Assembly (NCBI GenBank): GCA_963746075.1 | Contig: CAVUZY010000007.1 | Coordinates: 335,338 to 399,337 of the forward strand | Reading direction: 5' to 3' | DNA from: an uncultured Chloroflexia bacterium | GTDB lineage: Bacteria; Chloroflexota; Limnocylindria; Limnocylindrales; CSP1-4 | DNA: 64,000 nucleotides | Shown: positions 10,638-64,000 of the stretch, in pieces | How the letters are laid out: every line of letters begins with the position of its first letter | Position numbering within the stretch: position 1 is the stretch's first letter | Made by a program: the position numbers and the translations under genes | Notes under the pieces: generated by a model | Told to the model about the DNA's origin: nothing | Databases searched by the model: none | Seen by the model: only the letters and a program-made list of their open reading frames with translations

Positions 10638-10923
10638 AGCCCGCAGTCCTCCTTGGCCGCCACCTGCGACCGGCGCCACACCCCAGCGGAGCGTAGCTGC
10701 GCACTCGTCCGAGGTCAACTCGCCGGGACCCCGTCCGGACGGCCCATCCGGCCGGTGGCATGAGCGTGGGGCGGCCCGGCCGACGCGACCGTCGTGGCCC
10801 CCGGCCGGGCTTTGCGAAGGCCGAGGCGCGGATGGTAGATTGGGGGCACCGGCCGAGGCCCTCGGTTCGTGCCGGCTGCGCGCTTCCCGGATCGTCCACT
10901 CCACTGAAAGGCACGTCCTCGAC

Positions 10924-12759
10924 TTGGCGCTCGACTCCTCCCAGGAATTCCTCGTCCAGCCCGTCGATGCCTCCTGGCTCCAGTGCAACATCGAGTGCCA
11001 GGAGGCGTGTCCGGTCGGGACGAACTGCCGCGGCTACCTGAACCTCGCTGCCGAAGGGCGGTTCGAGGAGGGCTACATCCTGTCGCGCGAGCCGAACCCG
11101 GTCGCCGCCATGTGCTCGTACGTCTGCTCTGCGCCATGCGAGCGGGCCTGCCGCCGCGGTGACATCGATCGGCCGCTCGCGATCCGGGCGATGAAGCGGT
11201 TCCTCGTGGAGTGGCACGAGGCGTCGGGGATCCCCGACGTCATGCCCCAGATCACGCCCCGCGGCGAGAGCGTCGCGGTCGTGGGCGCCGGCCCGGCCGG
11301 GATCGCCGTCGCCCGTGAGCTGGCGATGAAGGGCATCCAGGTCTCCGTCTTCGACAGCCTGCCGTACGGCGGCGGGACGATGCTCATCGGGGTGCCGGCG
11401 TTCCGCCTCCCGCGCGAGGCGATCGAGATGGACGTCCGTCTCGTCGAGCGCCTCGGGGTCACGTTCCGCTTCAACACGACGATCGGCAAGGACATCACGA
11501 TGGAGGAGCTCCAGCGGGACTACGACGCCGTCGCGCTGACTGCCGGCGCGATGGATCCAGTCGCCCTCGACATCCCGGGCGGCGATCTCGACGGCGTCGA
11601 CTACGGGGTCGACTTCATGAAGAAGGCGAACCTCGGCCAGGAGCTGTACGTCGGCAAGGACGTGGTCGTGATCGGCGGCGGCTACACCGCGATGGACTGC
11701 TCGCGGACGAGTCTCCGCCACGGCGCGGAGCGGGTCTCGATCGTCTACCGCCGGACGCGGTCCGAGCTGGTCGTCGACGAGGAGGAGCTCGGCGAGACCG
11801 AGCGCGAGGGTGTCCGGATGGAGTTCCTCGCCAGCCCCGTCGAGGTCCTTGGCGAGGACGGCCACGTCACGGGCGTCAGGTTCATCCGCAACCGCCTGGG
11901 CGAGCCGGACGCGTCCGGTCGCCGATCGCCGGTCCCGATCGAGGGCAGCGAGTTCGTCATCGCGGCCGACGTCGTCATCCCGGCGGTGTCGCAGGCGGCG
12001 GACCTGACGTTCCTGCCGGTCGAGCCCGCGTTTGAGATCAACCGCGGCCGGGTCAAGGTCGACCCCGCGACGTACGCCACCAACACCCGCGGCGTGTTCG
12101 CCTGCGGCGACTTCGTGACCGGCCCCACGACCCTCATCGAGGCCGCCGGCCACGGCAAGAAGTGCGCCTACGCGATCGATCGCTATCTGTCGGGCCGGAC
12201 CGACGTGACGGTTACCCCCAACGTCAAGATCACGAGCTCGTGGCGCCACGACATGCCCGAGTTCTACGACGTCCTGCCGCGCCAGCACATCCCGATGGCG
12301 CCGCTCCAGGTCCGGATGCCGTCAACCGATCCGGAGGTCAACTTCAACACCCCGGTCGAGTACGGCTACGACGCCACGGCCGCGGTCGCGGAGTCGACGC
12401 GCTGCCTGATGTGCAACTTCAACATCTGGTTCGACCCGTTCCGGTGCGTCCTGTGCGGCGCCTGCGCCGACGTCTGCCCCGAGGGCGTCATCCACATGGT
12501 CGACGTCAACCAGCTCAAGACCGAGGGCCTCCTGCCCGAGATCGAGGAGTCGTACGGCTGGGAGAACGGGGCGGCGATGATCCTCGACGAGGAGCGCTGC
12601 ATCCGCTGCGCGTTGTGCGTCAAGCGTTGCCCGTTCGACGCCATTACGATGGAGCGGTTCGAGCTCCAGGAGATCTCGACCGACGGGCGGCTCTACAAGG
12701 AGTCGTACCGGGATGCGCAGCTTGCCGGGACCCCCGGCGTCGCAGGAGGAGCCCGGTGA
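10924..12759 (+). CDS. GltD/NfnB-like FAD/NAD(P)H oxidoreductase fused to a C-terminal 2x[4Fe-4S] ferredoxin domain
   Basis: N-terminal Cys clusters CQEACPVGTNC and CSYVCSAPCERAC. Dinucleotide folds VAVVGAGPAGIAVA and VVVIGGGYTAMDC, plus FACGDF. C-terminal CVLCGACADVCP and CIRCALCVKRCP. The stop overlaps the cyt b GTG. Start is uncertain (TTG 10924 proposed); the upstream part of the 919-aa ORF is antisense to the neighbouring gene. Confidence 0.8.
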   Translation: MALDSSQEFLVQPVDASWLQCNIECQEACPVGTNCRGYLNLAAEGRFEEGYILSREPNPVAAMCSYVCSAPCERACRRGDIDRPLAIRAMKRFLVEWHEASGIPDVMPQITPRGESVAVVGAGPAGIAVARELAMKGIQVSVFDSLPYGGGTMLIGVPAFRLPREAIEMDVRLVERLGVTFRFNTTIGKDITMEELQRDYDAVALTAGAMDPVALDIPGGDLDGVDYGVDFMKKANLGQELYVGKDVVVIGGGYTAMDCSRTSLRHGAERVSIVYRRTRSELVVDEEELGETEREGVRMEFLASPVEVLGEDGHVTGVRFIRNRLGEPDASGRRSPVPIEGSEFVIAADVVIPAVSQAADLTFLPVEPAFEINRGRVKVDPATYATNTRGVFACGDFVTGPTTLIEAAGHGKKCAYAIDRYLSGRTDVTVTPNVKITSSWRHDMPEFYDVLPRQHIPMAPLQVRMPSTDPEVNFNTPVEYGYDATAAVAESTRCLMCNFNIWFDPFRCVLCGACADVCPEGVIHMVDVNQLKTEGLLPEIEESYGWENGAAMILDEERCIRCALCVKRCPFDAITMERFELQEISTDGRLYKESYRDAQLAGTPGVAGGAR

Positions 12760-13484
12760 GTTTCCTCGAGCGGGTGGATCAGACCATCCGCCGGAGTCCC
12801 GTCTGGCGCTCGATCTTCCGTCAGCCGTACCCCAACGACGAGCGGTCGCGGGCGTACGCGGTGATGAACAACGTCTTCCTGCACATCCACCCGGTGCGCG
12901 TCCGGCAGCACGCGGTGAAGTTCGCCTACACCTTCTGCCTCGGTGGGCTGTCGTTCTTCCTGTTCCTCGTGCTGACGATCACCGGCGTCTACCTGATGTT
13001 CTTCTACGTCCCGTCCGCGACGCTCGCGTACACGAACATCCTCGACATCCAGAGCCAGGTGACATTCGGGCTGCTGACCCGGAACATCCATCGCTGGGGC
13101 GCCCACCTGATGGTGTTCTTCGTCTTCCTCCACATGATGCGGGTCTTCTACCACGGGGCCTACAAGCCGCCGCGCGAGTTCAACTGGGTCGTCGGCGTGG
13201 TGCTTCTGTTCCTGACGATCATGCTGAGCTTCACGGGCTACCTGCTGCCGTGGGACCAGATCGCGTACTGGGCGATCACGATCGGCACGAACATGGGTGG
13301 CTATGCGCCGCTCCTGAACGTCCCGGTCAACCGGCTGCTCCTGGGCGGCCTCGAGGTCGGCCAGAACACGCTCCTCCGCTTCTACGTGCTCCACATCATG
13401 GTGTTCCCGTTGGCAGCCGCGATCTTCCTGGCCGTCCACTTCTGGCGAATCAGAAAAGACGGAGGCATCAGCGGACCCCTGTGA
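12756..13484 (+). CDS. qcrB: Cytochrome b6-type subunit (4-helix N-terminal cytochrome b) of a Rieske/cyt b complex
   Basis: 242 aa. Haem His pairs sit in RNIHRWGAHLMVFFVFLHMMR and RFYVLHIMVFPLAAAIFLAVHFWRIRK. FCLGG Cys is at the haem ci position. It ends ...RKDGGISGPL as PetB/QcrB proteins do. GTGA overlap with the upstream gene. Confidence 0.92.
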   Translation: MSFLERVDQTIRRSPVWRSIFRQPYPNDERSRAYAVMNNVFLHIHPVRVRQHAVKFAYTFCLGGLSFFLFLVLTITGVYLMFFYVPSATLAYTNILDIQSQVTFGLLTRNIHRWGAHLMVFFVFLHMMRVFYHGAYKPPREFNWVVGVVLLFLTIMLSFTGYLLPWDQIAYWAITIGTNMGGYAPLLNVPVNRLLLGGLEVGQNTLLRFYVLHIMVFPLAAAIFLAVHFWRIRKDGGISGPL

Positions 13485-13575: not shown

Positions 13576-13650
13576 ATGACCGACACGAAGCAACCTCGGA
13601 CCATTGGCCTCGGCGGAGCTCGGCCTTGGGCCTCGGTGAGCCATGACTGA
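13576..13650 (+). other. 24-codon upstream ORF whose first 7 codons (MTDTKQP) duplicate the start of the subunit IV gene
   Basis: ATGACCGACACGAAGCAACCT compared with ATGACTGATACGAAACAGCCC at 13643 gives the same peptide with 5 synonymous differences. The stop (13648-13650) overlaps the subunit IV start region. Translation is unproven. Confidence 0.3.
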
Positions 13651-14260
13651 TACGAAACAGCCCACCGACAAGCGGGTCGTCCTTCCTGTGGACCCGACTC
13701 GCAGGACGGAGATCGACAAGCAGCGGGTGCCGATGTCGGCTCGGCCGTACCGGCTCCTCGCGCTCGTCAAGCAGGACGCCGTCGTCCGGGTCCAGAAGGA
13801 ACCCGACGACACGGTCATGACCTGGCCGCACCTGCTCTCGATCGAGTTCCTCGCGGCCGGCATGATGAGCGTGTTCCTGCTCCTGATGGGCCTGTTCATC
13901 AACGCCCCGCTCGAGGAGCTTGCGAACAGCAACGTCACGCCGGCCGTGGCCAAGGCGCCGTGGTACTTCCTCGGGCTCCAGGAGTTGCTCGCCTACTTCC
14001 ACCCCACGGTGGCCGGCGTCCTGACCCCGTTGCTGGTGCTCGTCGGGGCCGCCCTGATCCCGTTCGTCGACCGCGGCAACCTGACCGCGACCCGGCCCTC
14101 GGAGCGCAAGACCGCGGTCATCCTGTTCACGCTGTTCTGCGCCCTGGGCCTGATCCTGACGTTCGTCGGGATCTTCTTCCGCGGCCCGGGCTACAGCTTC
14201 GTCATCCCGTACCTGCCGTTCTTCGAGAACACCTCCCCCGGCCTGCACTTCTCCCTGTGA
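13643..14260 (+). CDS. Cytochrome b C-terminal part / subunit IV (PetD-like) of the Rieske/cyt b complex
   Basis: 205 aa with three predicted TM helices. Qo-site block VAKAPWYFLGLQELL corresponds to the canonical PEWYF region. Confidence 0.88.
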   Translation: MTDTKQPTDKRVVLPVDPTRRTEIDKQRVPMSARPYRLLALVKQDAVVRVQKEPDDTVMTWPHLLSIEFLAAGMMSVFLLLMGLFINAPLEELANSNVTPAVAKAPWYFLGLQELLAYFHPTVAGVLTPLLVLVGAALIPFVDRGNLTATRPSERKTAVILFTLFCALGLILTFVGIFFRGPGYSFVIPYLPFFENTSPGLHFSL

Positions 14261-14312: not shown

Positions 14313-14987
14313 ATGAGCAACTATCACGTCGAGCCGGTCGACCGGCCGAAGGCCCTCGCCCCCGAGGCGATCAAGGCGCTCCGCCGCGCCCAGGTCAAGG
14401 GCGTCTCGCGGCGCCAGCTTCTGCGCTACTCGATCGGCGGCGCGATCGGCCTCTGGCTCCTCGAGGTCACGGCAGGGACGATCGGCTTCATCTGGCCGAA
14501 CCTGACCGGCGGCTTCGGCAGCAAGGTCCGGATCGGCACTCTCGACGATCTCAAGCTCGCCAACAGCGCCCTCCCAATCAGCGATGGGTATCCGGCCTAC
14601 GTCCCCGACGCCCGGGCTTACATCGTCCTGATCGACACCGGCCAGCAGGGCTTCATCGCCGGCGAGGACACGACCGGCGACGGTCATCCCCTCAATGTCC
14701 GGGGCCTGTACCAGCGCTGTCCCCATCTCGGCTGCAAGCCGAACCCGTGCATCAGGAACTTCTGGCTGGAGTGCCCGTGCCACGGGTCGCGCTACGACCG
14801 GCTCGGCATCAAGGCCGAGGGCGCCCAGTACGGCCCGGCCGCGCGCGGGATGGACCGCTTCTCGGCCAGCGTCGACGGCGCGGGCGTCCTGACCCTCGAC
14901 ACCGGCAAGATCACCCTCGGCCCGCTGCCGGTTGCGGTCGGCCAGCCAGGCATCATCCCGCCGCGCACCCCGACCGGGTGCATCTGA
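14313..14987 (+). CDS. qcrA: Rieske [2Fe-2S] subunit with Tat signal
   Basis: Twin-arginine signal VSRRQLLRYSIGGAIG. Cluster boxes CPHLGC and CPCHGS. Confidence 0.92.
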   Translation: MSNYHVEPVDRPKALAPEAIKALRRAQVKGVSRRQLLRYSIGGAIGLWLLEVTAGTIGFIWPNLTGGFGSKVRIGTLDDLKLANSALPISDGYPAYVPDARAYIVLIDTGQQGFIAGEDTTGDGHPLNVRGLYQRCPHLGCKPNPCIRNFWLECPCHGSRYDRLGIKAEGAQYGPAARGMDRFSASVDGAGVLTLDTGKITLGPLPVAVGQPGIIPPRTPTGCI

Positions 14988-16150
14988 TGACCGACCAGAC
15001 GCCGGCGCCGATCCCCGAGGGGACCCCGGAGCCCGTGCCCGACGGAGGCGCCGAGGAGCAGCGCCTGCCGGCGACCGTTCCGCCCGCGACGCTGTCCGCC
15101 GACCGGTTCAGCGCGGTGCCGGCGATCAAGAACAACGCGGGCCTGACGCCCCAGCGCTCGGCCGGGATCGTGCGCCAGTCGGCGTCGGCCCGCTGGGTCG
15201 GCTTGCTGACCGTCATCTTCGTCAGCCTGTTCATCGTCGGCTACTGGTTCTACGAGCTCGGTGCGCCGGCGGGGATCTCGAAGGCGCGGCTCGCCGAGGA
15301 GATCGACGCCCAGCAGGTGACGGCCGTCGAGCGCGGCTACAACCTGTACGAGGCGAACTGCGCCCGCTGCCACGGGCCGGGCGGATTGGGGCCCGACGAG
15401 CCGGACGCCGCGGCCAAGGCGGCTGCCGGTCAGGGCTACATCGGGCCGCGGCTCAACGCCCAGGAGAAGCTGTTCGCCCACCTCAGCGAGGCGTATCTGA
15501 ACAACGTTCTGCTCGTCGGCGGCCGCTACGTCTGCGGCAACGCGACGTCGGCGATGCCGGTCTGGTCGGACCAGGGCAACCCGCCGGGTCCCCTGAACTA
15601 TCGCCAGATCGACGAGCTGATCGCGTTCCTGCGGGCGACCAACGAGCACGAGTACGAGGTCCGCGATCCCTCGACGAACGAGCCGATCATCGACCCGGCG
15701 ACGGGCAAGGTGAAGACGTTCACCGGCTGGCGCGATCCGAACTACAAGCCGGATCCGGCCGCGACGCCCTACCCGGCTTGCTACATTGATGCCCTGACCG
15801 GCGGCGCCGGCGGCTCGGCCGCTCCGGGTGCCTCCGTCGACCCGAACGCGCCCGTCGTCACGGTCGCGGCGCCCGATGGGTCCGCGACGACCGGCTTCAC
15901 CCCGACCACCCTCGAGGCCAAGGCCGACACCGCGTTCACCCTCGTCTTCGACAACCAGGACGCCACGACCGGTCCGCACAACGTGGTGATCAGCGACTCA
16001 TCCGGCACGGCGATCGCGATCGGCGACACGGCTTTCTTCACCGGTCCCGCGAAGCGGAGCTACGCGGTGCCGGCGCTCAAGGCCGGGTCGTATCCGTTCG
16101 TGTGCCAGGTCCACGTGTCGACGATGAAGGGCACCCTCGAAGTCAAGTAG
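14987..16150 (+). CDS. Membrane-anchored monohaem cytochrome c fused to a C-terminal type-1 copper (cupredoxin) domain
   Basis: The ATG shares one base with the Rieske TGA. TM WVGLLTVIFVSLFIVGYWFY. Haem motif CARCH with distal SAMPVW. C-terminal cupredoxin has ligand pattern GPHNV ... FVCQVHVSTM (H, C-x2-H-x3-M). Confidence 0.88.
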   Translation: MTDQTPAPIPEGTPEPVPDGGAEEQRLPATVPPATLSADRFSAVPAIKNNAGLTPQRSAGIVRQSASARWVGLLTVIFVSLFIVGYWFYELGAPAGISKARLAEEIDAQQVTAVERGYNLYEANCARCHGPGGLGPDEPDAAAKAAAGQGYIGPRLNAQEKLFAHLSEAYLNNVLLVGGRYVCGNATSAMPVWSDQGNPPGPLNYRQIDELIAFLRATNEHEYEVRDPSTNEPIIDPATGKVKTFTGWRDPNYKPDPAATPYPACYIDALTGGAGGSAAPGASVDPNAPVVTVAAPDGSATTGFTPTTLEAKADTAFTLVFDNQDATTGPHNVVISDSSGTAIAIGDTAFFTGPAKRSYAVPALKAGSYPFVCQVHVSTMKGTLEVK

Positions 16151-16193
16151 GCAGGAGCCGGGCGGACGAGACGCCCGGACCGGATGGAGGACG

Positions 16194-17656
16194 ATGGCGC
16201 AGCAGGCCCTGAACCCGGGAACCACACAGACGCGCGGACGGGCGATGTTCGGCCTGCTCGACGCGAACGGGTGGGGCTGGGCGTCGCTGAAGGCCGCGTT
16301 CTGGTTCGTCCTGCTGATCTTCATGCTCGGCTACGTCCCGGATCGGGCGTACTACTTCACGGTCAACAAGACGATCGACCTGGGGATCCTCGCCTGGAGC
16401 CCGCTCAACTTCTGCCCCGAGGGCAATCGGACGCTGCCGTGCCCGGCGCCGGTCGGAGCGATGGTGCCGTGGGAGGCCTCGCCCGCGGACATCTCGCTGC
16501 CCGGAGCCGCGGACCGACGGCGCGATGGTCCAGTCCGGGACGACGATCCTGTACGTCGGCGGGTCGGACGGGTCGGCGGCATCGGCCAAGACCTTCATCT
16601 CGAAGACGTCCGGCACCGGCAACTTCGACAAGTGGACCGCCGGCCCAGACCTGCCCGAGCCACGCTCGAACCTGTCGGTCATCTACTCCGGCGGCAAGAT
16701 CTACGCGATCGGCGGGAACGGCGCCGACGGCCAGCCAACCGCCACCGTGTACGTCCTGACGCCGGACTCGAAGACCGGCGCCTTGGGCGAGTGGCAGACG
16801 ACCGAGGAGGCCAAGCTCGACCTGGCCCTCCCCGAGCCGCGAGCCGGCACGGCCGTCGTTGCCGCGTCCGATGGCCTGCTCCTCGTCGGCGGCACGAACG
16901 GCACGGCCCCGGTCGATACCGTCTGGAAGACGACCTTCGATTCCAAGGGCGTGCCGAGCAAGTGGACGCCGCAGGCCGGCAAGCTCTTCACGCCGGTTAC
17001 GGATGCGTCGGCGGCGATCGTCGGCAGCTATCTGTGGGTCTATGGCGGGACGGCTCCCGGCGTCAACGCGATCCCGAGCGTCCAGCGCGGCGAGTTCGGT
17101 ACCGGCGCCGACGCGACGAAGATCACCCGGTTCGGCGTCCAGGGCGGCACGACGGACCTGCCGGCGCCGCGCACGAACCTGGTCGGGTTCGCCGCGAACG
17201 GCGCCCTCTACGCGGTCGGCGGGTCCGACGGGACGACGCCCCAGACCAGCGCGTACTGGGCAATCCCCAATGCCGTCGGAGAGCTCGGTGGCTGGAAGCA
17301 TCTCGACGTCAGCGACCTTCCGACGGGCCTGGCCGGCGGCGCGCCGATCATCCTCGGGCCGGATGCCATCGCGGTCGGCGGAACGACCGACCGCGGGCGT
17401 CACGAACGCCAGCCACCGGGCGAACATCGCCCCGGAGGCGCCGTTCTTCCAGCTCGGCCTCGTCGGTGCGACGGTTCCAGCCCTGAAGATCGACGGTGAG
17501 ATCGGCCAGCAGCTCGGCTATCTCAACGCCAACACGATCGGCATCGTGAACTTCGCGCTCTTCGTCGTCATCGGCTGGGCGTTCGCCCACCGCGCGCAGA
17601 TCAAGGAATGGCGCGACCGACGCCGGCGCGAATCGGAGCTCAAGAAGCGCGCCTGA
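16194..17656 (+). pseudogene. Kelch-repeat beta-propeller protein with N- and C-terminal TM helices; two frame interruptions (~16510 and ~17395)
   Basis: Three consecutive frames: 16194 (MAQQ...FWFVLLIFMLGYVP...ISLPGA), 16525 (TILYVGG, GKIYAIGG, GLLLVGG, SYLWVYGG, GALYAVGG Kelch blades) and 16859 (...APFFQLG...IGIVNFALFVVIGWAFAH...KKRA). Confidence 0.75.
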
Positions 17657-62918: not shown

Positions 62919-64000
62919 TCAGCCGCCGACGGTCAGCGTGCCGGTCATCAGGGATGGATGGATCGAGCACTCGAACTTGTACGCGCCGGCCTTCAAGGGC
63001 GGCACGTCGAACGTCTTCACGGCGATGCCGGGGAAGTCCTTCATGTCGTAGACCTTCGCCCCGCCGTCGTCGAGGAAGTCGACGTCGTGGGGCGTCGAGG
63101 CGTCCTTGTTGTCGAGCGTGATCTTGAACGGCGCGTCCGCCGGGGCTGCGAGGGTTGCCTGGTCGAACTTCACGCCCGAGGCGATGATCGAGATCCCGCC
63201 CGGACCCGGTCCACCGGATCCCGGCGGCCCACCCGACGGGGCCGCGGAGCCGCCAGGCTCGCCCGAGCCACCGGCCGCGGAGCGCGGCGGGAACCAGCCG
63301 GCGTTGAGGGCGACGGACACAACGAGAAGGAAGGCGAACACCGACACGACGGTCTTCGGCCAGCCGGGCGCCGGGTCGTTCTCGAGATGGCCGGTCGAGT
63401 CGGCCCGGACGACCTGCTTGTACTCCTTGCGGGCGTCGCTGAGCCAGCCGAGCAGGGCGGCGATCGTGAACAGCACGCCGACCGCCAGGATCCAGCCGCC
63501 GAAGACGAGGCCCGCGAACAGGACGAACAGCCCGAGCGAGGCGAGGATCGGGCGGAACGACGGACCGGGCATGTGGACGCCGGGCGGGGGTCCGGGATGC
63601 TCGATCGGCGCCAGCTGCGGATGATCGCCGGCGACGTGGTCGTAGTCGACGAGGGCCTCGCGACCCCAGTAGAGCAGGCTCAGGACCAGGACGACCAGCC
63701 CGATGACGAGGGTCGGTCCGCCGAAGACGAGCCCCAGGACGAGAAGGAACGTTCCGATCGCTCCGTAGAGGGGGGCGTAGGTCGGGCCCGGCATGTGGAT
63801 CCCGGGCGGGGTCACCGGCTCGATCCGGCCCGGCCGGCGGCGGCGCGGACCGAGCCGCGCGTACTGGTAGACGACCCGGATGAAGAAGAGGACCACCACG
63901 ACGCCCATGAACACGGGCAGGAGCGAGATCAGGGCGCCCCAGTCCGGGATGACGAGGAGCTTGGTGAGATCGAGGATCCCGTTCCAGATCTGCTCGAGGA
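62919..64000 (-). CDS. Polytopic membrane protein with duplicated CtaF-like (oxidase subunit IV-like) module fused to a C-terminal cupredoxin; 5' end lies outside the window
   Basis: The frame stays open to position 64000 (...LEQIWNGILDLTKLLVIPDWGALISLLPVFMGVVVV...). Two copies of PPG[IV]HMPGP[ST][YF]xP, each followed by a TM hairpin. C-terminal PHDV...FECSIHPSLM gives type-1 Cu ligands. Confidence 0.7.
   Translation of the reverse strand, partial: LEQIWNGILDLTKLLVIPDWGALISLLPVFMGVVVVLFFIRVVYQYARLGPRRRRPGRIEPVTPPGIHMPGPTYAPLYGAIGTFLLVLGLVFGGPTLVIGLVVLVLSLLYWGREALVDYDHVAGDHPQLAPIEHPGPPPGVHMPGPSFRPILASLGLFVLFAGLVFGGWILAVGVLFTIAALLGWLSDARKEYKQVVRADSTGHLENDPAPGWPKTVVSVFAFLLVVSVALNAGWFPPRSAAGGSGEPGGSAAPSGGPPGSGGPGPGGISIIASGVKFDQATLAAPADAPFKITLDNKDASTPHDVDFLDDGGAKVYDMKDFPGIAVKTFDVPPLKAGAYKFECSIHPSLMTGTLTVGG

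Follow-up and report, generated by a model that had tools for sequence, protein, structure and literature searches.

Carriers that are tethered between respiratory complexes III and IV are known as heme domains, as in the diheme QcrC, cytochrome cy, and the caa3 oxidases, and blue-copper links are known as separate proteins, namely sulfocyanin, halocyanin, and auracyanin. Here, we analyzed a gene that joins the two kinds of module, located at positions 14987-16150 of a 64,000-nucleotide stretch of DNA (hereafter, the window) from an uncultured Chloroflexia bacterium of the Limnocylindrales (GenBank assembly GCA_963746075.1; contig CAVUZY010000007.1, referred to as C7; window at C7:335338-399337). 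Its product, called the c-subunit below, carries a cytochrome c domain followed by a type-1 cupredoxin domain and belongs to a Rieske/cytochrome b operon. The original prediction, made from the DNA letters, had proposed that the mobile carrier is built into the complex and that electrons pass from heme c to copper and then to a second copper domain at the terminal oxidase. In the full-text literature searched, we found neither a cytochrome c-cupredoxin subunit nor a fusion between oxidase subunit II (CoxB) and a cupredoxin described; within its clade, the c-subunit fusion is nothing unusual.

Several described systems share parts of this arrangement. In archaea, blue copper links a Rieske/cytochrome b module to a heme-copper oxidase, as in sulfocyanin SoxE of the Sulfolobus SoxM supercomplex and in the haloarchaeal halocyanins. 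These archaeal proteins, however, are separate polypeptides that have no heme c domain. Among bacteria, QcrC is held by a C-terminal anchor, and auracyanins occur as separate proteins and have Alternative Complex III as their partner. The actinobacterial QcrC of bcc-aa3 (PDB 6hwh, 7q21, 6adq, 7rh5, and 8ovc) resembles the c-subunit as a membrane-anchored protein with two tandem redox domains, the distal of which replaces the soluble carrier and feeds CuA of the aa3 oxidase, and QcrC chains gave weak sequence matches to the heme region of the query in a profile search. In contrast to QcrC, the second domain here is a type-1 cupredoxin and not a heme c domain, the anchor is N-terminal, and the protein falls outside the QcrC family. 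From the same phylum, the auracyanins A and B found in Chloroflexus and Roseiflexus (2aan, 1qhq, and 6kol) share the fold and the ligand set and are membrane-tethered periplasmic carriers. Their ligand loop, however, reads C-x4-H-x3-M (2aan alignments), compared with C-x2-H-x3-M here, and the domain is fused here, which sets it outside the auracyanins.

Tethering at the oxidase or in other enzymes offers further comparisons. Subunit II of the caa3 oxidases (CoxB-cytochrome c) bears its carrier domain at the CoxB C-terminus, ahead of CuA, which is also the layout of CoxB in this genome, but in this genome a type-1 cupredoxin takes the place of the cytochrome c; a true caa3-type CoxB was found in another Chloroflexota genome that has a heme-copper c-subunit (L055). 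In three-domain copper nitrite reductases (PMC13324648; 2dv6 and 6tfd), the redox partner, a cytochrome c or a cupredoxin, is likewise tethered by a linker, although these are a different enzyme and no Cu-oxidase_3-type protein was found in this genome. Finally, short CxGG cytochromes b linked to large NAD(P)-binding Fe-S flavoproteins, as seen in this operon, have already been described, mainly in the Rieske/cytochrome b complexes of anammox bacteria (PMC5600118). The high-potential side here differs in consisting of one heme c and one copper rather than of multiheme cytochromes, and the inventory is aerobic.

Domain architecture of the c-subunit

The c-subunit gene (forward strand) is an intact open reading frame (ORF) of 387 codons plus a TAG stop at 16148-16150. 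Residues 1-69 (14987-15193) form a conserved, predicted cytoplasmic extension; in a 38-sequence alignment whose members are 56-92% identical to the query, RLP 26-28, RF 40-41, and VRQS..ARW 62-70 are among its invariant residues, and the diheme forms of a sister family described below (L047 and L048) lack this extension of the cupredoxin-bearing forms. A single transmembrane anchor, read from the sequence, follows at about residues 70-89 (15194-15253; WVGLLTVIFVSLFIVGYWFY) and is covered by a helix over residues 55-91 in the AlphaFold2 model. Because several arginines precede this helix, the topology is predicted to be N-in, C-out, so that both redox domains would lie on the outer face of the membrane, as heme c and copper sites require.

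We assigned residues 114-217 (15326-15637) to a class I cytochrome c domain with predicted His/Met heme ligation. The CxxCH motif is CARCH at residues 125-129 (15359-15373), and Met190 (codon 15554-15556) lies in SAMPVW. The assignment is based on matches to the Pfam profiles Cytochrom_C (PF00034, residues 114-217; 28.2 bits against a cut-off of 21.3) and Cytochrome_CBB3 (PF13442; 29.2 bits against a cut-off of 27). The cytochrome c1 and cytochrome f families gave no Pfam match to the c-subunit at E <= 0.01, and the NCBIfam model for actinobacterial QcrC (NF050122) reached 22.2 bits against a cut-off of 200; the c-subunit has a single CxxCH. A conserved post-heme extension (residues 218-265; 15638-15781) terminates at an invariant cysteine, Cys265 (codon 15779-15781), which is the final residue ahead of a flexible Gly/Ala/Pro/Ser linker of about 24 residues (approximately residues 266-289; 15782-15853). 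This linker is delimited by low AlphaFold2 confidence (predicted local distance difference test [pLDDT] of <50 over the linker region 252-284) and by indels in the 38-sequence alignment, through which its length differs among homologues. Another invariant cysteine, Cys183 (codon 15533-15535), stands 7 residues ahead of the Met ligand; the Cys183/Cys265 pair is common to the cupredoxin-bearing forms and absent from the diheme sister-family forms. The two cysteines may form a disulfide, possibly pinning the root of the linker beside the heme.

The C-terminal residues 290-387 (15854-16147) correspond to a type-1 cupredoxin domain, which by its alignments and predicted fold is closest to auracyanin and plastocyanin. 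Cupredoxin_1 (PF13473) matched residues 289-384 with 43 bits (cut-off 27), and Copper-bind (PF00127), with 20.4 bits, fell narrowly below its cut-off of 21.2. In the AlphaFold2 model, the domain is a seven-strand beta-sandwich with a pLDDT of 80-96. The top match of a Foldseek search against the PDB was auracyanin B (1qhq, E 8e-8), and other matches were the Nitrosopumilus cupredoxin 5fc9, the copper-bound Bacillus cupredoxin_1 4hcf, and the Roseiflexus auracyanin 6kol, together with amicyanin and many plastocyanins (probability 1.00, target-normalized TM 0.56-0.85), while a profile search of PDB sequences ranked auracyanin A first (2aan, E 8e-5). The copper ligands are His331 (codon 15977-15979) in GPHNV and Cys373-x2-His376-x3-Met380 (codons 16103-16105, 16112-16114, and 16124-16126) in FVCQVHVSTM. 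Superposition of the ligands was judged through sequence and profile alignments, and in the profile alignment to the plastocyanin 7zqe_M, the PHN, Cys, His, and Met of the query fall on the PHN, Cys, His, and Met of plastocyanin.

The domain anatomy given in the original prediction, that is, a membrane anchor, one heme c, a Gly/Ala/Pro linker, and a cupredoxin, was as claimed when judged by Pfam, alignment, and AlphaFold2. A hidden Markov model search had been proposed as a check, and it placed Cytochrom_C and Cupredoxin_1 above their cut-offs and only Copper-bind just below. The findings that would have spoken against the prediction, a non-copper fold or misplaced ligands, were not obtained in the fold search or in the sequence and profile alignments. 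A cupredoxin fold could also serve non-redox copper handling, either as a chaperone or in delivery for the assembly of copper sites; Foldseek returned the non-redox proteins CupA (4f2e) and FtrB (8vuk) as well, and the oxidase operon encodes a TlpA-like thioredoxin. We consider such a function very improbable, however, since the full His/Cys/His/Met set with its His-Asn pair is present at canonical spacing and aligned on the plastocyanin ligands, and since relatives carry in its place a second cytochrome c or an auracyanin-type cupredoxin, both of which are electron carriers.

Conservation of the fusion

A fused ORF of this kind could result from an assembly indel that joined two neighboring genes, and this assembly is rich in single-base indels, with frame breaks in the nearby Kelch gene and in coxA. 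We give this explanation next to no weight and ruled it out because the same single ORF recurs across independent assemblies. A search of 5.8 billion proteins returned 2257 homologues at E <= 0.001, of which the best 120 (374-394 amino acids, 94-100% query coverage) each contain both Pfam domains and derive from independent JGI, ENA, NCBI, and Logan assemblies. Source labels, where present, read only "cupredoxin domain-containing protein," with Candidatus Limnocylindrales or Chloroflexota as the organism. Representatives of 50%-identity clusters, many of them fragmentary or frame-shifted, served only to spot the auracyanin-type and two-cupredoxin variants described below.

In independent genomes, one CxxCH was found in all 45 monoheme loci, and 40 of the 45 c-subunit ORFs contain the C-terminal Cys-His-Met loop in a single ORF. 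Two of the five ORFs without the copper loop (L028 and L031) end at a contig end, and the remaining three are partial matches only, from long-read metagenome-assembled genomes, which are tentatively attributed to frame breaks. The search for the same fusion in other genomes, which had been suggested with the prediction, therefore yielded more than 2000 metagenomic homologues in addition to these 40 loci. Throughout the 38-sequence alignment, C125, C128, H129, M190, H331, N332, C373, H376, and M380 are invariant, and the invariance of the copper ligands points to selection on the copper center.

Operon context

The c-subunit is encoded by the fifth gene of an operon on the forward strand. The operon is headed by a GltD-like NAD(P)/FAD flavoprotein with Fe-S domains (10900-12759, start approximate), followed by cytochrome b6 (12756-13484), which has the CxGG motif FCLGG and whose GTG start at 12756 overlaps the flavoprotein gene, by subunit IV, the C-terminal part of cytochrome b (13643-14260), and by the Rieske iron-sulfur subunit (14313-14987). 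The TGA stop of the Rieske gene (14985-14987) shares one base with the ATG of the c-subunit gene at 14987 (TGATG), and we read the two genes as translationally coupled. Among species-representative genomes, the order GltD-like flavoprotein, b6, subunit IV, Rieske, c-cupredoxin, and Kelch is the same in all related loci of sufficient length, and gene order is also kept in more distant relatives. On the grounds of operon, anchor, and predicted topology, the c-subunit is assigned as a subunit of the Rieske/cytochrome b complex; its earlier description as the high-potential subunit of this operon is borne out by the conserved gene order and the overlap with the Rieske gene. Across related loci, the flavoprotein is 89-99% identical (89-100% when b6 is included), compared with 52-91% identity of the c-subunit to the query, which indicates that the outer-face c-subunit evolves much faster than the core.

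Downstream, the gene at 16194-17656 (forward strand) encodes a Kelch-propeller protein that has membrane anchors at both ends. This gene has two frame breaks in the window, at approximately 16474-16502 and 17396, but is intact in L030 (484 amino acids), and it adjoins the c-subunit gene in all related loci that are long enough. Between the c-subunit stop and the GGAGG/ATG of the Kelch gene lies a 7-bp G+C stem, CCGGGCG...CGCCCGG (16158-16178, forward strand), with no T-run after it. Separately, cytochrome b6 narrowly passes the NCBIfam equivalog model for ExtP, the b-type cytochrome of a selenite/tellurite reduction operon (292 bits against a cut-off of 290), so that automatic annotation could misname it.

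Oxidase and other cupredoxins in the genome

The assembly comprises 3.55 Mb in 7 contigs with 71% G+C. In the whole assembly, the c-subunit is the only match of both general Pfam cytochrome c profiles, and of 47 stop-to-stop ORFs with any CxxCH, it is the only one with a cytochrome-like context. It is again the sole Pfam cytochrome c match in three of five well-assembled relatives. The gene for System II heme attachment, ccsA (PF01578, 75 bits), is present at C4:672297-672891, split by one frame break. The assembly contains one heme-copper oxidase and one cytochrome bd; a Cu-oxidase_3 protein (NirK/multicopper-oxidase type) was sought as an alternative acceptor, and none was found in the assembly.

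The oxidase operon lies 48 kb from the bc operon on the minus strand and starts just beyond the end of the window, in the order coxB, coxA, coxC, a 64-residue ORF, a CtaF-like cupredoxin protein, and a TlpA-like thioredoxin. CoxB (C7:401891-403009, minus strand, approximately 2.5-3.7 kb past the window end) matches COX2_TM, COX2, and Cupredoxin_1 in Pfam and has two membrane helices, the CuA motif CAELCGIGHRIM, and, at its C-terminus, a Pro/Gly linker followed by a type-1 cupredoxin (TPHDV...CSIHPTLM). The coxA gene (C7:400451-401796, minus strand) is broken near 401348 and 401643 and so occupies three reading frames; its splits and that of ccsA are most likely assembly indels and not pseudogenes. 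The last large gene of the operon (62919-64000, minus strand; its start lies 7 nucleotides past the window end) encodes a membrane protein with a C-terminal type-1 cupredoxin (PHDV...CSIHPSLM), which the original prediction had called CtaF-like and had taken to carry a paralogous copper domain. The paralogy stands, since the domain is encoded in the cox operon and is 45% identical to the bc-fused cupredoxin. The CtaF-like label agrees with the operon context, but the Pfam score of 20 bits is under the cut-off of 26.9. The bc-fused domain is 44% identical to that of CoxB, and the CoxB and CtaF-like cupredoxins are 64% identical to one another.

Cupredoxin_1 gave 14 matches in the assembly. Three genes encode stand-alone lipoprotein cupredoxins, in each of which an Ala/Pro/Ser tether comes after the lipobox Cys. 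One of them (C7:279665-280345, forward strand) is 60% identical to the bc-fused domain and has a tether of about 65 residues; the other two are at C4:577043-577939 (minus strand) and C4:73812-74219 (forward strand). A cupredoxin-like domain (CSVEGHAEAGM; Cupredoxin_1, 50.6 bits) was also observed at the C-terminus of a heavy-metal P-type ATPase (C7:445132-447945, forward strand) whose N-terminus bears a GMTCASC metal-binding domain.

Exchange of the C-terminal module among Chloroflexota

To place the fusion in its lineage, 400 Chloroflexota genomes were compared. The full-length fusion was present in 16 of the 23 genomes of the window's family and, in the same order, in all 4 genomes of a second, small-genome family. 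In a third (sister) family of the same class, the cytochrome c and cupredoxin parts matched separately in 16 of 16 genomes, and the same operon ends in a subunit of 267-269 residues in which two cytochrome c domains follow an N-terminal helix. In the two genomes in which this diheme subunit was inspected (L047 and L048), the first heme domain aligns with that of the query, and the second occupies the position of the cupredoxin. Within the window's own family, one genome (G365) has an auracyanin-A-type cupredoxin as its C-terminal module (auracyanin-type loop CTLPGHYATM; 2aan, E 7.7e-9), which shows local similarity only to the domain of the window, and one metagenomic homologue has two auracyanin-type modules in tandem. 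An unrelated Chloroflexota family (G385) has an operon of b6, subunit IV, and Rieske genes that lacks the flavoprotein gene; its last product consists of a two-helix anchor, then a cytochrome c, and then a plastocyanin-type cupredoxin. The diheme, auracyanin-type, and tandem variants suggest that the C-terminal position is occupied by an exchangeable carrier module.

These relatives also bear on the order of the two centers. Electrons could pass from the Rieske cluster to copper and leave through heme c, or the copper could be a buffer off the path. Sequence by itself leaves the order unfixed, the potentials of the two types of center usually overlap, and in the sister family a heme c can hand electrons to the cupredoxin of CoxB with no copper domain in the bc complex. 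However, the heme domain adjoins the anchor and corresponds by alignment to the first of the two domains in the diheme relatives, the copper domain sits on a disordered, length-variable linker, as would be expected of a distal mobile element, and the invariant ligands imply selection on the copper center. An alternative order or a side branch is therefore unlikely, though it carries more weight than the other competing explanations considered here.

The distribution of the oxidase module was compared with that of the c-subunit. Most genomes of the window's family and genomes throughout the third family encode the CoxB-cupredoxin fusion, which is missing from the small-genome family and, in this sample, rare outside the class. 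In the window's family, the c-subunit fusion and CoxB are both present in 16 genomes and both absent in 7 (G151, G169, G178, G187, G205, G237, and G389), each of which is 91-95% complete. Judged from gene presence and absence, those seven genomes appear to have lost the two enzymes jointly; as the seven span only two genera, the independent events number two at the most. We also considered whether the bc exit module and the CoxB module co-vary strictly and rejected this, as it does not hold across families, and the partnership signal that was retained is the weaker one, namely the joint presence or absence of the two enzymes.

The same distribution is relevant to the direction of electron flow. 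If the complex operated uphill, an external or periplasmic donor would deliver its electrons to the cupredoxin, and the flavoprotein complex would drive them to quinone or NAD(P)+, resembling the reversed bc1 that is fed through rusticyanin in Acidithiobacillus. The operon is indeed headed by a strongly conserved NAD(P)/FAD Fe-S flavoprotein, in contrast to the more variable c-subunit, and such complexes have been discussed for anammox bacteria, where the direction was left unresolved (PMC5600118). Yet no outer-membrane or periplasmic donor system is seen beside the operon, and the c-subunit is the sole c-type cytochrome of the assembly. In addition, the joint presence and absence of the c-subunit and CoxB in the family and the cupredoxins on the oxidase both fit a forward route to oxygen. 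Uphill operation is thus quite improbable, less so than a role in copper handling but more so than another internal order.

Proposed electron route

The route that we consider likely, with room for real doubt, leads from the Rieske cluster through heme c to the tethered type-1 copper and then to the oxidase, and every competing explanation above is less likely than this forward passage from heme to copper. One N-terminal helix would hold both redox domains outside, with heme c near the membrane and the cupredoxin on its linker of about 24 residues. Quinol would give electrons to the Rieske [2Fe-2S] cluster of a b6-type quinol-oxidizing complex, the cluster would pass them to heme c, and heme c would pass them to the type-1 copper of the same subunit. 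The copper would in turn reduce the sole heme-copper oxidase, where the paralogous tethered cupredoxins on CoxB and the CtaF-like protein precede CuA. The last hop could occur directly, either through collision or inside a supercomplex, or could proceed via the lipoprotein cupredoxin with the long tether. By analogy with the diheme QcrC, we infer that the fused copper domain does the job of the second heme domain.

This route is favored for the following reasons: (i) the heme domain lies beside the anchor and is homologous to the first domain of the diheme relatives; (ii) the linker is disordered and variable in length, and the copper ligands are invariant; (iii) the distal module is exchanged for other carrier domains in relatives; (iv) the assembly holds no other c-type cytochrome and no alternative copper enzyme; and (v) the only heme-copper oxidase itself bears copper domains. 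Taken from the gene content and predicted structures, the bc complex and the oxidase are probably wired by a tethered copper rather than by a free carrier.

Several observations weigh against this interpretation. Since the assembly is 76% complete by marker genes, the statements that it has only one cytochrome c and no NirK hold for the assembled part. The heme domain was modeled poorly (pLDDT 42-77; whole-protein predicted template modeling score 0.36), and the model does not give the heme-to-copper geometry. Pairings in other families also depart from a matched set of copper domains, in that the sister family combines a diheme c-subunit with CoxB-cupredoxin, the small-genome family combines the fusion with a plain CoxB, and G385 combines a heme-copper subunit with a caa3-type CoxB. 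Lastly, free lipoprotein cupredoxins are encoded, so the route need not be wholly built in.

The two functional claims of the original prediction consequently fared differently in their parts. That a carrier domain is fused to the cytochrome c subunit was confirmed, but the lipoprotein paralogue, with its 60% identity and long tether, could still shuttle between the fused domains. The relay from heme to copper to copper gained strength from the cupredoxin on CoxB, the sole cytochrome c, and the second heme of the sister family, although we infer each electron-transfer step and the order of the steps. A more far-reaching version can be offered only tentatively: the chain may contain a single c-type heme and run from heme c through the bc copper and the CoxB/CtaF-like copper to CuA, wholly tethered, perhaps as an obligate supercomplex, and with no diffusing carrier, while the exit module would be swapped like a cassette among heme c, an amicyanin-like cupredoxin, or one to two auracyanin-like cupredoxins. 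If true, such a chain would represent, in bacteria, a copper-based equivalent of the actinobacterial bcc-aa3 supercomplex.

Implications for respiration in the Limnocylindria

The c-subunit merges the tethered carrier and the blue-copper link in one polypeptide, and the oxidase of the same genome bears matching copper domains. The lineage in which this occurs, the Limnocylindria of the Chloroflexota, is widespread and abundant in soil and freshwater and has no cultured model. With about 290 residues, the soluble part of the c-subunit is small and would be amenable to spectroscopy. Relatives that have a second heme or another cupredoxin at the same position constitute a natural swap series for the interchangeability of heme c and type-1 copper, and this series bears on how the availability of copper and iron may shape respiratory chains.

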